64,000 nt of DNA from Escherichia coli. Its GTDB lineage: Bacteria; Pseudomonadota; Gammaproteobacteria; Enterobacterales; Enterobacteriaceae. Below the pieces are notes generated by a model, which did no database searches, had not been told where the DNA came from, and saw only the letters and a program-made list of their open reading frames with translations. Where the stretch lies: assembly GCF_036507355.1 (NCBI RefSeq), contig NZ_AP027878.1; one strand, given 5' to 3'. Below are positions 29,870-44,179 of this stretch, one piece after another. How positions within the stretch are numbered: position 1 is the stretch's first letter; the number at the start of each line of letters is the position of its first letter. The translations under genes were made by a program, and so were the position numbers.

Positions 29870-29975
29870 GATAGATATTTTGTTTATCGCGAATCACATT
29901 TTTTCACTTCAGTACCTGTGTGCTATACTCCTTCTTGATTGATTGGATGCGGAATACAAACCCGCTCTTTTGTGC

Positions 29976-30004
29976 AGCCTGGCTCCTTGCCAGGCTTTTT
30001 TTTA
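29976..30004 (+). terminator. Plus-strand intrinsic terminator abutting cra stop
   Basis: AGCCTGGC-TCCTT-GCCAGGCT followed by eight T on the plus strand only. Confidence 0.55.
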
Positions 30005-30313
30005 TTTCATCATGGAAGCTGTTAACGCTTTGGACCTTGCTGAACTGATTGAAAGGACATTGTTAACCTTACCCAAGAGTTCGCCAAACTCAGACATCAC
30101 TTTAGCAAAACCGCGCCGTGCTTCTTCCTCGGTGGCATTCATCACGAAATGTTCAGCACTACGCATACTTTTGACAGGAAACGCAACGGATATTGAGTCA
30201 ATATCAGGCATTCTATCGCTCAGCTTTACAGTGACAATGACGGCTGGCGACTGAATATTAGTGCTTACAGACAGCACTACATATTTTCCGTCGATGTTGA
30301 AATCCTTTCTCAT
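30002..30313 (-). CDS. cra: Cra (cre-associated function)
   Basis: 103-aa ORF between ref and cre with GGTGA RBS; position as in P1. Confidence 0.55.
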   Translation of the reverse strand: MRKDFNIDGKYVVLSVSTNIQSPAVIVTVKLSDRMPDIDSISVAFPVKSMRSAEHFVMNATEEEARRGFAKVMSEFGELLGKVNNVLSISSARSKALTASMMK

Positions 30314-30363
30314 ATGTCACCATAAATATCAAATAATTATAGCAATCATTTACGCGTTAATGG

Positions 30364-31395
30364 CTAATCGCCATCTTCCAGCAGGCGCACCATTGCCCCT
30401 GTTTCACTATCCAGGTTACGGATATAGTTCATGACAATATTTACATTGGTCCAGCCACCAGCTTGCATGATCTCCGGTATTGAAACTCCAGCGCGGGCCA
30501 TATCTCGCGCGGCTCCGACACGGGCACTGTGTCCAGACCAGGCCAGGTATCTCTGACCAGAGTCATCCTTAGCGCCGTAAATCAATCGATGAGTTGCTTC
30601 AAAAATCCCTTCCAGGGCGCGAGTTGATAGCTGGCTGGTGGCAGATGGCGCGGCAACACCATTTTTTCTGACCCGGCAAAACAGGTAGTTATTCGGATCA
30701 TCAGCTACACCAGAGACGGAAATCCATCGCTCGACCAGTTTAGTTACCCCCAGGCTAAGTGCCTTCTCTACACCTGCGGTGCTAACCAGCGTTTTCGTTC
30801 TGCCAATATGGATTAACATTCTCCCACCGTCAGTACGTGAGATATCTTTAACCCTGATCCTGGCAATTTCGGCTATACGTAACAGGGTGTTATAAGCAAT
30901 CCCCAGAAATGCCAGATTACGTATATCCTGGCAGCGATCGCTATTTTCCATGAGTGAACGAACCTGGTCGAAATCAGTGCGTTCGAACGCTAGAGCCTGT
31001 TTTGCACGTTCACCGGCATCAACGTTTTCTTTTCGGATCCGCCGCATAACCAGTGAAACAGCATTGCTGTCACTTGGTCGTGGCAGCCCGGACCGACGAT
31101 GAAGCATGTTTAGCTGGCCCAAATGTTGCTGGATAGTTTTTACTGCCAGACCGCGCGCCTGAAGATATAGAAGATAATCGCGAACATCTTCAGGTTCTGC
31201 GGGAAACCATTTCCGGTTATTCAACTTGCACCATGCCGCCCACGACCGGCAAACGGACAGAAGCATTTTCCAGGTATGCTCAGAAAACGCCTGGCGATCC
31301 CTGAACATGTCCATCAGGTTCTTGCGAACCTCATCACTCGTTGCATCGACCGGTAATGCAGGCAAATTTTGGTGTACGGTCAGTAAATTGGACAT
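30364..31395 (-). CDS. cre: Cre tyrosine site-specific recombinase
   Basis: 343 aa MSNLLTVHQNLPALPVDATSDEVRKNLMDMFRDRQAFSEHTWKMLLSVCRSWAAWCKLNNRKWFPAEPEDVRDYLLYLQARGLAVKTIQQHLGQLNMLHRRSGLPRPSDSNAVSLVMRRIRKENVDAGERAKQALAFERTDFDQVRSLMENSDRCQDIRNLAFLGIAYNTLLRIAEIARIRVKDISRTDGGRMLIHIGRTKTLVSTAGVEKALSLGVTKLVERWISVSGVADDPNNYLFCRVRKNGVAAPSATSQLSTRALEGIFEATHRLIYGAKDDSGQRYLAWSGHSARVGAARDMARAGVSIPEIMQAGGWTNVNIVMNYIRNLDSETGAMVRLLEDGD, recognised as P1 Cre. Confidence 0.95.
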   Translation of the reverse strand: MSNLLTVHQNLPALPVDATSDEVRKNLMDMFRDRQAFSEHTWKMLLSVCRSWAAWCKLNNRKWFPAEPEDVRDYLLYLQARGLAVKTIQQHLGQLNMLHRRSGLPRPSDSNAVSLVMRRIRKENVDAGERAKQALAFERTDFDQVRSLMENSDRCQDIRNLAFLGIAYNTLLRIAEIARIRVKDISRTDGGRMLIHIGRTKTLVSTAGVEKALSLGVTKLVERWISVSGVADDPNNYLFCRVRKNGVAAPSATSQLSTRALEGIFEATHRLIYGAKDDSGQRYLAWSGHSARVGAARDMARAGVSIPEIMQAGGWTNVNIVMNYIRNLDSETGAMVRLLEDGD

Positions 31396-31402
31396 TTAAC
31401 AC

Positions 31403-31624
31403 TCAGATAATGGTTTTAAGTAAAGTGTACAGGATCGGCTCTGCCTTTACCTGTTTATGGTTCTCGTCATAGAAACGCCAGCGACCGCGCGTGCGTTCTA
31501 TTTTCTCTTCACCGCGCGATAATGACAGTTGGCAACTATCACGATCAAACCCTTTTGCCCGCCAGTAACCACGGTTTTTCTCAAGCTCAAGATGAGTGGA
31601 CACTTTAGCAGTTGAATATCCCAT
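31403..31624 (-). CDS. Small ORF in the loxP-cre leader (73 aa), hypothetical
   Basis: GAGGTG RBS 4 nt before ATG; ends 8 bp before cre start; preceded by the recurrent motif. Confidence 0.3.
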   Translation of the reverse strand: MGYSTAKVSTHLELEKNRGYWRAKGFDRDSCQLSLSRGEEKIERTRGRWRFYDENHKQVKAEPILYTLLKTII

Positions 31625-31813
31625 TTTTCACCTCTGATTGATTGGTGGTGCTAAGTGCGCTACGCGAAATCTGTAGGACTAACACCGCCAATTTTTCACA
31701 GATTTTACGTAGCGCAACCTTGATCAAATGATCAAGTGGTCACTATTTGACCTGCTAAGGTATTGAACTGTATGGATTTACAGGTAAATTGATCATATTC
31801 AATAACCCTTAAT

Positions 31814-42142: not shown

Positions 42143-42151
42143 GCATCCCCC

Positions 42152-42238
42152 TTACCCATGCGCGACGATGCCGCCAAAAGTGATAGAGAACAGCCAGAAA
42201 TAGATCGCGGCCATAATGATTTTGAATGCCGTGTTCAT
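42152..42238 (-). CDS. Tiny hydrophobic peptide (28 aa) translationally coupled to the ASCH-like gene
   Basis: CAGGAG RBS, MNTAFKIIMAAIYFWLFSITFGGIVAHG; its stop is followed by a GGGGGA Shine-Dalgarno that serves the ASCH-like start. Confidence 0.3.
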   Translation of the reverse strand: MNTAFKIIMAAIYFWLFSITFGGIVAHG

Positions 42239-42320
42239 ATTTTCAGCTCCTGTGATTGATTGGAAACATGCCGCGCCTTGCGGCATGTTTTTATTTTCAC
42301 TTTCTCTGTTTTAAAAATCA

Positions 42321-42337
42321 AGATTTATTAGAGCAAT
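42321..42337. promoter_or_regulatory. C1 operator upstream of the ASCH operon
   Basis: AGATTTATTAGAGCAAT, one mismatch. Confidence 0.65.
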
Positions 42338-42843
42338 TATTGTTGATGAAGAAGCGCATTTTCATACTCCCTGACCATTAACGTAAGCACGCCGTGCCTC
42401 CTGAAAACACGCGCCACTTCAATCTTATCTTCCAGCGCGAACGCGATTTTACTTAGACCAATTTTCTTAAGGAGATCAATCTTTGCTGGGCCGTCATTTC
42501 TGTCATCTGTGGCAGGACGCATAGATAGCAAAGGCTCAGCCCCGTTTGTTACGTACTTCCGCAGCCAGGCTCGTGTTTTATCCCTTGCGATCTCACAGCG
42601 CCCGGTTACAAACCAGACCGTGTAAACGTTAAATAACTGGCGCACCATATCAATAACTGGAGTGATGGGAGTATCGGTGTCACAGGCGAGATTAAACTCG
42701 TTCCAGTCCTTTGTTAATGCACCTTTACCTGGTGGCGGAAGCAAATGCAGTCTGTCTTCAGTTGCCTCTGATATTGTTCCATCAATATCGACTATGACGA
42801 TATACGGACGTTCCTGGTGTGCGTGTTTATTGAAAATACTCAA
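42337..42843 (-). CDS. HAD-superfamily phosphatase-like protein
   Basis: 168 aa; IVDIDGT motif I near N-terminus. Confidence 0.55.
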   Translation of the reverse strand: MSIFNKHAHQERPYIVIVDIDGTISEATEDRLHLLPPPGKGALTKDWNEFNLACDTDTPITPVIDMVRQLFNVYTVWFVTGRCEIARDKTRAWLRKYVTNGAEPLLSMRPATDDRNDGPAKIDLLKKIGLSKIAFALEDKIEVARVFRRHGVLTLMVREYENALLHQQ

Positions 42844-42916
42844 ATGCCCTCCTCATTGGACGAAAAAAATGCTGGTGGGACGCACTCCACCAGCATTAAA
42901 AGTGACACTGTAACTA

Positions 42917-44179
42917 TCAGCGAACGTAAATAGTGCCGCCGTTCTCTTTTTCCCATGCATCGCTACGTGCATAGCAAACATCGAGAAGTCTTCTTGCCGC
43001 TGTTTCCTCTAAACCCAATTCGACAACCAACTGCTCATGACGGCGGGTAACCACATCAAACAGGGTATGCAGCCCTTTAGTTGCCAGATCATCAATGAAT
43101 TCCGGTTCGAACGGCAGCTCTGCATCTGCCAACATAACCTCTTGCGCCCACTCAACTCGACGGACCAATTCCGGGCGGCGGCTTTCCATCTCTTTACAGA
43201 TTAATTCATGGAAGAACTCTACCCAACCTTCCGGCTGGAACTCGCGGAAAATTGCCAACGGCTGGAAGTTTGGCATCAACCATTCGTTGATTCGGATATC
43301 AATGGCATAGCCCATGTCGCAGCAGAACTGATAAGCAAAGTCCAGCTTAGACACGATATAAGGACGCTCGTTATTGAACTCTTTAGGCGATGAGATCCCA
43401 TAAGCCAGGAGGCGCGGGAAGAAGGATATTTGCCCTAACGTCGGATGAAGTTTGCTTGCAGGGAAACGGCGCTCAGTAATGCCATACATTTCCTTCTTGA
43501 GCGTCGCAAATTTGGCATTCTCATTAACCAGCGCGGTAACCTCTGCTTTTTTATTAGCAAATGCCACGCGCGCTTCGCTTGCATCTTTAATAGTTTTTTT
43601 GAGCTGTTGGTTAAGGTCGGCGACCTGCTTACGCAGTTCCTGTCGCTCGCTTTTAGCTTTGTTATAGCGTTTCTCAAGGTTAAAAGGATCAAGTTTCATG
43701 ATCTCTTTATATTGAGATTTTAGCGTTGAAATCTGTGAGTTCCGCAGTTCAACCATCGCGGTCATTTCATTGAGTTTTGTTTCCAGCTCAATGCTTATAC
43801 GTTCGGCATTATCAGCACGCTGGTTGGCGTCATGCGTCGCATCGTCGATCGCGTCCTGTTGCTGGCGTTTCAAATGTTCAATTTGCAGCTGAAGCTCTTC
43901 AATTTCTTTATCCTTCAGACCGAGATCCAACTGCATATTTTCAGCTGCATCTACCAGGGAGTTATGGCTATCAGCTTCTGCGTTATAAACATCAATAAGC
44001 TGTGCGTGAAGCATCTCCGCTGACTGAACCGCATTATCAAAAAAACGCGCTGTGAGGTCATCACAACTAACGCGGCGTTGCGCGGCCCGGATGTTCTGGA
44101 TAATGGCCGGGATACCGGCATTCAGGACGTCAGGGATAGATACATTTTCGATTGATTGGTTTTGTGCTGAAGTGATCAT
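42917..44179 (-). CDS. Hypothetical protein, coiled-coil N-terminal half
   Basis: 420-aa ORF; no recognisable catalytic motif. Confidence 0.5.
   Translation of the reverse strand: MITSAQNQSIENVSIPDVLNAGIPAIIQNIRAAQRRVSCDDLTARFFDNAVQSAEMLHAQLIDVYNAEADSHNSLVDAAENMQLDLGLKDKEIEELQLQIEHLKRQQQDAIDDATHDANQRADNAERISIELETKLNEMTAMVELRNSQISTLKSQYKEIMKLDPFNLEKRYNKAKSERQELRKQVADLNQQLKKTIKDASEARVAFANKKAEVTALVNENAKFATLKKEMYGITERRFPASKLHPTLGQISFFPRLLAYGISSPKEFNNERPYIVSKLDFAYQFCCDMGYAIDIRINEWLMPNFQPLAIFREFQPEGWVEFFHELICKEMESRRPELVRRVEWAQEVMLADAELPFEPEFIDDLATKGLHTLFDVVTRRHEQLVVELGLEETAARRLLDVCYARSDAWEKENGGTIYVR

Follow-up and report, generated by a model that had tools for sequence, protein, structure and literature searches.

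A predicted trans-acting small RNA gene in the c8-ref spacer of phage P1 and its candidate target sites at phage translation starts

The 64,000-nucleotide (nt) stretch of Escherichia coli DNA analyzed here (the window; contig NZ_AP027878.1 of assembly GCF_036507355.1) belongs to the genome of phage P1 and runs as the reverse complement of the reference record AF234172, with P1 nt 1 (at lox) at window position 31830. Positions 29937–30003 of its plus strand, in the spacer between c8 and ref, most probably encode, on the evidence of sequence, a new trans-acting, seed-pairing small RNA (sRNA). Transcription of an RNA of about 65 nt would start from an extended −10 promoter and stop at an intrinsic terminator. 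The single-stranded 5′ seed of this RNA (the first 8–10 nt, GAUUGAUUGG) would pair in trans with CCAAUCAAUC in three or more P1 mRNAs, namely in the cra-cre operon leader, in that of the pmgT operon, which is headed by a 28-amino-acid (28-aa) open reading frame (ORF), and at the coding start of pmgS, where the linker of the RNA would add eight pairs. Gene anatomy, conservation, seed accessibility, and the positions, complementarity and covariation of the targets were computed; expression, exact ends, direction of regulation, chaperone use and physiological role are inferred.

The initial annotation had drawn attention to a recurrent 11-nt motif, TGATTGATTGG, and its non-random occurrence is borne out. 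The motif is present in three exact copies on the plus strand (29936, 31635, and 42253), against a mean of 0.11 expected from 100 dinucleotide-preserving shuffles of the window, none of which reached three; a near-copy, CGATTGATTGG, identical in 10 of 11 positions, starts at 44149. The 10-nt core GATTGATTGG is exact at all four positions and has a fifth copy on the opposite strand at 53103 (five observed, 0.33 expected; no shuffle reached five). The other 32.5 kb of the P1 genome, outside the window, contains neither a copy of this 10-mer nor a 9-mer. The DNA flanking the separate copies is mutually unrelated. The motif is a direct, not an inverted, repeat built on the low-complexity unit TGAT-TGAT-TGG.

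The candidate RNA gene in the c8-ref spacer

The copy at 29936 lies in the c8-ref spacer (P1 nt 1885–1895), not in a cra-ref spacer as first described, and no ORF follows the motif. This copy is taken to be the RNA gene because the plus strand presents a promoter, a 5′ seed, a short hairpin (hairpin 1) and a terminator (Table 1). By prediction, the gene is an independent transcription unit with its own promoter and Rho-independent terminator; it is oriented opposite to c8 and ref, and the 3′ end of the RNA adjoins the c8 stop codon (30002–30004, minus strand). The predicted promoter has no overlapping C1 operator, Oref being situated about 30 bp upstream of its −35 element. Folding of the 68-nt sequence gave a minimum free energy of −23.2 kcal/mol (z −3.24), with nt 1–8 of the seed unpaired (p 0.66–0.99).

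The locus was compared in 87 P1-type elements comprising 48 distinct sequences (P1, P7, PLSDB plasmids, and IMG/VR contigs). The promoter box TGTG(C/A)TATACT is invariant in the 48 variants, and TGTGCTATACT and GATTGATTG show no change in any of the 87 loci. The T preceding the G varies, consistent with a transcript start at G. Changes in the stems are G·U-compatible, and the remaining ones fall in the loops, the linker and the discriminator. The T-run varies in length from six to nine, which breaks the reading frame, and indels in hairpin 1 likewise break any frame; the locus is therefore considered non-coding. Sequence preceding the −10 box is divergent, and recombination has replaced it in some loci. 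Breakpoints just upstream of the box were found in locus L003 (11333–11400) and in one IMG/VR variant; there the ref side is unrelated sequence and the RNA gene, c8 and cre remain together, so that the RNA marks a module boundary.

The RNA locus is carried by 614 of 5,426 complete E. coli genomes, nearly always on P1-like plasmids, and by 698 PLSDB plasmids. No RNA is annotated at the locus in P1, P7, RefSeq E. coli genomes or PLSDB, and the curated record AF234172 has no feature at nt 1830–1956, the 127-bp c8-ref spacer. At the gathering threshold, Rfam matched only three tRNA genes in the whole window (minus strand; 55626–55698, 57133–57205, and 57211–57283), and a permissive scan of 29800–30100 returned only sub-threshold generic sRNA matches. 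A full-text literature search, for which literal sequence strings were also used, brought up no paper on an RNA encoded here; its scope did not extend to the 2004 P1 genome paper, which may mention the terminator.

Candidate target sites on P1 mRNAs

Pairing energies are those of cofolding; the full-length energies from duplexfold ignore intramolecular structure and were set aside as inflated. According to the initial annotation, each motif copy stood just 5′ of a minus-strand start codon. This is correct for cra and the 28-aa ORF only, the copies at 29936 and 44149 being placed otherwise. The notion of a target site for a trans-acting RNA, offered there as one possibility, gains support, with the correction that the copies are not equivalent: the one at 29936 is the candidate RNA gene itself.

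Site A directly precedes the cra Shine-Dalgarno sequence GAGGUG (cra AUG at 31624–31622). In P1 gene orientation it reads CCAATCAATCA-GAGGTGAAAAATG, followed by cra, the first gene of the cra-cre operon, and cofolding predicts a 10-bp seed duplex plus a GUGC:GCAC contact (ddG −10.9). Among 87 loci with 26 variants, CCAATCAATCAGAGGTGAAAA is invariant while the upstream leader varies; one further genome carries a C-to-U change, which is G·U-compatible. In two P1-type IMG/VR loci cra has CTG instead of ATG as its start codon, with motif and Shine-Dalgarno sequence intact.

Site C has the same position relative to the 28-aa ORF, directly 5′ of its Shine-Dalgarno sequence CAGGAG, and reads CCAATCAATCA-CAGGAGCTGAAAATATG in gene orientation before that ORF; the predicted duplex has 11 bp (ddG −15.0). 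It is mostly intact in 82 loci, the exceptions being a 4-nt deletion in three of them and the point variants CUAAUC (three loci) and CCAGUC (one locus), both G·U-compatible, and CAAAUC (one locus). The 28-aa ORF shows synonymous changes across loci and is retained even where the downstream gene differs. AF234172 has no annotated feature at this ORF, and PHROG and NCBIfam profile searches with the small peptides, including this one, found no family. In the operator/promoter region of pmgT, a 26-nt stretch (42312–42337) is 96% identical to 31882–31907, upstream of coi and near lox; both contain C1 operator sequence (ATTGCTCTAATAAAT...).

Site D lies within the first codons of pmgS, as the initial annotation had placed the 44149 copy, although the ATG that follows the motif is out of frame. 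The site is composed of GCACAAAA (44167–44160) and CCAAUCAAUC (44159–44150), the motif reading CCAATCAATC in pmgS codons 7–10. The seed would pair with CCAAUCAAUC and the linker UUUUGUGC with the adjoining GCACAAAA, giving 10 + 8 = 18 bp that flank hairpin 1 (ddG −19.2 kcal/mol). In a sliding cofold scan of both strands this was the best trans site in the window, and it is conserved in 74 of 76 loci.

The fifth copy of the core, inside dbn, probably stands outside the regulatory system and is likely due to chance. The dbn mRNA carries the seed-like strand rather than the target strand, and no counterpart was seen in phage JK004 or plasmid pCVMN1543, two diverged relatives described below.

The hairpin and T-run that the initial annotation reported next to two copies are both present. 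At 29936 they are hairpin 1 and the terminator of the RNA. At 42253 the plus strand shows, in reverse complement, the 5′ hairpin of the pmgT-operon mRNA and the A-rich −10 region. A second sRNA gene at 42253 on the plus strand was considered and rejected: no promoter was found upstream (region 42150–42252 scanned), and the equivalent hairpins of JK004 and pCVMN1543 have no T-run on that strand. P1 repA was also discarded as a target. It contains AAUCAAUCA at +4 to +12, which is not conserved in JK004 repA; the match (8–9 nt in the first five codons; locus L010 31620–31632, P1 nt ~62620–62631) is within chance, since the genome holds seven extra 8-mers. Were it real, it would connect the RNA to plasmid replication.

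Table 1. Features of the predicted RNA gene, its candidate targets and associated genes. Positions refer to the window unless another genome is named.
Feature	Position	Strand	Context or basis
Predicted sigma-70 promoter	29901..29929	+	Consensus scan, TG flagged; sequence conservation
Weak −35 element TTTTCA	29901-29906	+	17-nt spacer, then extended −10
Extended −10 element TGcTATACT	29921-29929	+	7-nt spacer, then GATTGATTGG
Predicted small RNA, about 64-67 nt	29937..30003	+	Ends predicted from sequence; P1 bottom strand, nt ~1894-1830
Seed GAUUGAUUGG	29937-29946	+	5′ end of predicted RNA
Hairpin 1, GCGG..CCGC	29949-29965	+	Short GCGG-loop-CCGC stem
U-rich linker UCUUUUGUGC	29966-29975	+	Between hairpin 1 and terminator
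Intrinsic terminator stem-loop, 8 bp, GC-rich	29976-29996	+	Terminator scan
Terminator U-run	29997-30003	+	Ends at c8 stop codon
Target site A, CCAAUCAAUCA	31635..31645	−	Leader of cra-cre operon
28-aa hydrophobic ORF, unannotated, MNTAFKIIMAAIYFWLFSITFGGIVAHG	42152..42238	−	First cistron after pmgT promoters
Target site C, CCAAUCAAUCA	42253..42263	−	Short leader from C1-controlled pmgT promoters
5′ stem-loop ACAUGCCGC-AAGGC-GCGGCAUGU	42266..42288	−	Predicted start of pmgT-operon mRNA
Target site D, bipartite	44150..44167	−	pmgS codons 5-10 (+13 to +30)
Fifth copy of 10-nt core	53103..53112	+ (reads CCAATCAATC)	Inside dbn, antisense to dbn
JK004 target: ref homologue			Motif abuts AUG
JK004 target: first gene of cre operon (gene absent from P1)			Before Shine-Dalgarno sequence
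JK004 target: homologue of 28-aa ORF			Before Shine-Dalgarno sequence
JK004 target: pmgS homologue			Codons 5-10
JK004 target: small membrane protein			Before Shine-Dalgarno sequence
ProQ/FinO gene of pCVMN1543	72985-73515 (L270 29985-30515)
ProQ/FinO gene of JK004	81956-82489

Diverged lineages and covariation between the predicted RNA and its candidate targets

The conservation check proposed in the initial annotation could be made in two relatives, where the motif is kept at orthologous places despite intergenic DNA that cannot be aligned. Cronobacter phage JK004 (MZ188976) has a Cre protein 79% identical to that of P1, with intergenic DNA unalignable with P1. Its RNA gene directly follows the c8 homologue, in the position and orientation seen in P1, and comprises TGTGATATACT-CATTCGC-GAUUGAUUGGC, a hairpin of unrelated sequence, AUGUGUG, and the terminator AGCCCGGC-GAAA-GCUGGGCU, which differs from that of P1 by a compensatory U-A to C-G double change. 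The third lineage is represented by IMG/VR locus L181, corresponding to the Salmonella plasmid pCVMN1543; promoter box, seed and terminator are kept, and hairpin 1 is different again and still folds. The seed is identical and TGTGATATACT is conserved in both diverged lineages. Across 19 distinct sequences of the three lineages, 97.8% of the cells of the two stems are paired, four base pairs change on both sides, and no shuffle reaches the observed covariation score.

In JK004 (93.8 kb) the 10-mer occurs six times, all on a single strand, once in the RNA gene and five times in initiation regions (Table 1). In pCVMN1543 (85.8 kb) there are four copies and one G·U-compatible 9-mer, all on the sense strand, at the orthologous pmgS, cre-operon, small-ORF and small-membrane-protein sites. 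The targets thus counted, three in P1, five in JK004 and four in pCVMN1543, are all on the sense strand and between −25 and +30. About 4% of strand positions fall within 30 nt of a start codon, and a chance placement of five of five (JK004) and four of four (pCVMN1543) targets at starts is very unlikely. A conserved seed, predicted to be accessible (nt 1–7/8 unpaired) and facing several unlinked mRNAs at translation-initiation regions, was found in all three lineages.

The pmgS site occupies the same codons in the P1, JK004 and pCVMN1543 homologues, and in JK004 it retains the equivalent linker contact UGUGCAG:CUGCACA. The first gene of the cre operon is different in JK004 and L181, yet the orthologous site precedes it. 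The leader and target site of the cre operon are therefore more conserved than its first cistron, whose start codon and identity vary. Homologues of the 28-aa ORF are encoded by JK004 (MHLIFKLAITAFYAWML...) and pCVMN1543 (MHTVFKLAMAAFY...), and in three targets, two of JK004 and one of pCVMN1543, the motif comes after a stem-loop (GGCCGC..GCGGCC) placed like that of the pmgT-operon mRNA. Two JK004 coding-sequence calls, g94 (64633–64749) and g104 (70245–70430), apparently have misplaced starts or frames; the ORFs that follow motif and Shine-Dalgarno sequence, MHLIFKLAITAFYAWML... (53 aa) and MKDFAMPRQ... (52 aa), are better supported.

P1 ref was rejected as a target: the motif is absent from its leader, though it abuts the ref AUG in JK004. 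In the P1 ref leader, between the annotated ref promoters and the ref start codon, the minus strand has a terminator-like hairpin (GGCGGCC-ATTA-GGCCGCC + T8, 29768–29785) whose end is 5 nt short of that codon; it may act as an attenuator in the leader or form a 5′ hairpin. The JK004 ref homologue has the same layout, with the sRNA target inserted between T-run and AUG.

The motif was not found in phage D6 (Dre, 41%) or in 12 Dre-like loci of Pantoea, Mixta, Pluralibacter and Frischella obtained by scanning genome contigs, a search that did not extend to altered seeds. Searching IMG/VR with Cre and Pap yielded P1-type loci almost exclusively.

The nucleotide next to the motif offers a further comparison. 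In JK004, C11 of the RNA lies opposite G in all five targets (GCCAAUC). In pCVMN1543, positions 11–13 of the RNA are UUU, the targets read AAACCAAUC or GAACCAAUC, A lies opposite U11 in four of four, and complementarity extends to 12–13 nt. Position 11 thus changes concertedly across unlinked sites, which favors base pairing over a protein-binding or enhancer motif.

Two of the three RNA-carrying lineages, JK004 and pCVMN1543, encode RNA-binding proteins of the ProQ/FinO family that are 75% identical to each other; tblastn revealed no homologue in P1. This phage protein could be a dedicated chaperone.

Alternative readings, mechanism and biological meaning

Several points weigh against a trans-acting sRNA. 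The 5′ end, 3′ end and expression of the RNA are predictions. Its −35 element is weak in P1 and unrecognizable in JK004 and L181, where the consensus scan called no promoter at the RNA loci, and the case for a promoter consequently rests on the conserved TGnTATACT. Site A ranked only in about the top 3–5% of a crude sliding cofold scan, and some of the motif there is predicted to take part in internal pairing of the cra leader. Of the three P1 targets only site C has U opposite A11, and a G10-to-U seed variant (four sequence variants) is unmatched at site A of the same loci. Conservation within the P1 lineage is by itself weak evidence, since these loci are closely related.

The motif might instead be a cis-acting leader element that enhances translation, serves as a standby site or is recognized by an RNA-binding protein, within a hairpin-motif-Shine-Dalgarno module of which 29936 would be a decayed copy, no sRNA being involved. 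It does abut the Shine-Dalgarno sequence, at sites A and C as well as in a number of targets of JK004 and pCVMN1543, often after a 5′ stem-loop; the top strand at 29936 also reads as hairpin-motif-AGAAGGAG, and JK004 and pCVMN1543 supply a candidate protein of the ProQ/FinO family. Yet P1 lacks a homologue of that protein, the 29936-type copy is without a following ORF in three lineages while the opposite strand keeps the extended −10 and the terminator, and the conserved pmgS site lies in a coding region without a Shine-Dalgarno sequence, its complementarity reaching into the linker of the RNA. The nucleotide adjoining the motif, moreover, co-changes in the RNA gene and all targets of each lineage, as pairing predicts. 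We consider this explanation improbable, although as a description of the targets it can be reconciled with an sRNA. The related proposal of a translation-initiation module gains no support from the same pmgS site or from its suggested partner GAAAA(T)ATG, which is not conserved in JK004 or pCVMN1543 and hence falls outside the element.

About equally improbable is that the RNA serves primarily as a type I antitoxin silencing small hydrophobic peptides (the 28-aa ORF, its homologues, and the g104-type peptide). Two of five target classes are small hydrophobic ORFs whose short leaders begin with a stable 5′ hairpin, a trait of many type I toxin mRNAs, and the pairing adjoins their Shine-Dalgarno sequences. 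Type I partners, however, are adjacent or overlapping, and here 12.3 kb separate the RNA gene from the 28-aa ORF. The small ORFs stand at the head of longer operons, conservation across the three lineages is just as strong at the cre-operon and pmgS sites, and the profile searches linked the peptides to no known toxin. A DNA-level operator for a phage or host protein is less credible still. The 11-mer occurs near promoters of C1-controlled operons and cre, but 14 of 15 exact 10-mer copies in the three genomes are on the gene-sense strand (the exception being the dbn copy), they lie downstream of predicted transcription starts or in coding sequence and not over promoters, and the motif, which is a direct repeat, bears no resemblance to the C1 operator ATTGCTCTAATAAATTT annotated in the same regions. 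That the copies are functionless chance matches or remnants of an old duplication can practically be dismissed: the low-complexity unit, the dbn copy and the repA 8–9-mer do have the look of chance, whereas the excess in the window, the unrelated flanks, and the six and four copies at orthologous initiation regions of two unalignable genomes do not.

The trans-acting sRNA reading agrees with well-known systems. RybB, OmrA/B and the prophage-borne DicF are trans-encoded enterobacterial sRNAs with a 5′ seed and a Rho-independent terminator. The P1 RNA resembles them in its own predicted promoter, intrinsic terminator and long U tail, in a single-stranded 5′ seed of about 8–11 nt, and in unlinked targets at or just after the ribosome-binding site; no sequence or Rfam relation to described sRNA families was found. 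Unlike RybB-type sRNAs, it is encoded by a phage-plasmid, and the recognized targets are the phage's own genes. The seed-pairing sRNA is thus a familiar kind, to which the predicted RNA would add a new member whose regulon is internal to the phage.

P1 already possesses one regulatory RNA, C4 of the P1/P7 immI region (AF234172), a small RNA with short complementarity at a ribosome-binding region (sites a2/b2 before icd-ant) and part of lysogenic control. C4 is processed from the transcript that it regulates, within one operon, whereas the predicted RNA relies on a promoter and terminator of its own, would pair through a linear 5′ seed with dispersed targets as far as 14 kb from its gene, and shares no sequence with C4. 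The predicted RNA is no C4 antisense RNA, as there was no Rfam match beyond the tRNAs and no exact complement of at least 5 nt; nor is C4 the partner of the motif, as had been suggested, since it contains no complement to it, not even of 5 nt. TisB/IstR-1, ShoB/OhsC and Zor/Orz are type I toxin-antitoxin systems with trans-acting antitoxin RNAs. Like these, the P1 RNA would form a short duplex (11 bp) with the leader of a hydrophobic-peptide mRNA that has a stable 5′ structure; unlike them, its gene is remote from that of the peptide, whose ORF heads an operon, other targets are equally conserved, and a scan of 42150–42252 revealed no promoter from which an antisense RNA could be made locally. 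The 17-bp asymmetric C1 operator does not match the motif either: the annotated Oref, OpmgT and OpmgRa/b are located elsewhere and have a different sequence.

The duplexes would cover −21 to −11 at cra and the 28-aa ORF and +13 to +30 at pmgS. Since these positions fall within the ribosome footprint or border on it, blocked ribosome binding and/or mRNA decay, the latter as a secondary effect, are the most likely mechanisms, and repression of translation is in our estimate a somewhat more likely outcome than activation. The U tail and U-rich linker fit Hfq. Transcripts reading through c8 would be fully complementary to the RNA. Its promoter has no C1 operator and two of its targets are in the C1-repressed operons pmgT and pmgR-pmgS; a plausible role is therefore that of a second, post-transcriptional lock on early and recombination functions in the lysogen. 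The c8 function in establishing lysogeny is at present only putatively assigned to the neighboring ORF. Speculatively, and rather unlikely as a whole, the RNA would be a master regulator acting post-transcriptionally in the P1-type life cycle and would form another layer of RNA immunity beside C4. It would keep expression of cre, ref, pmgS and the pmgT operon low in the lysogen, could be the true c8 determinant, might be assisted by ProQ/FinO proteins in JK004 and pCVMN1543, and might act on host mRNAs.

Few phages have been studied as much as P1, from which Cre-lox derives, and its c8-ref spacer is nevertheless without an annotated function. The 28-aa ORF would represent a conserved, unannotated membrane peptide heading the pmgT operon. 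If the predicted RNA is confirmed, a post-transcriptional layer would be added to the control of P1 lysogeny and recombination, and, as many of the carrier elements have resistance genes, the RNA would be a widespread, so far unrecognized regulator in clinical isolates.

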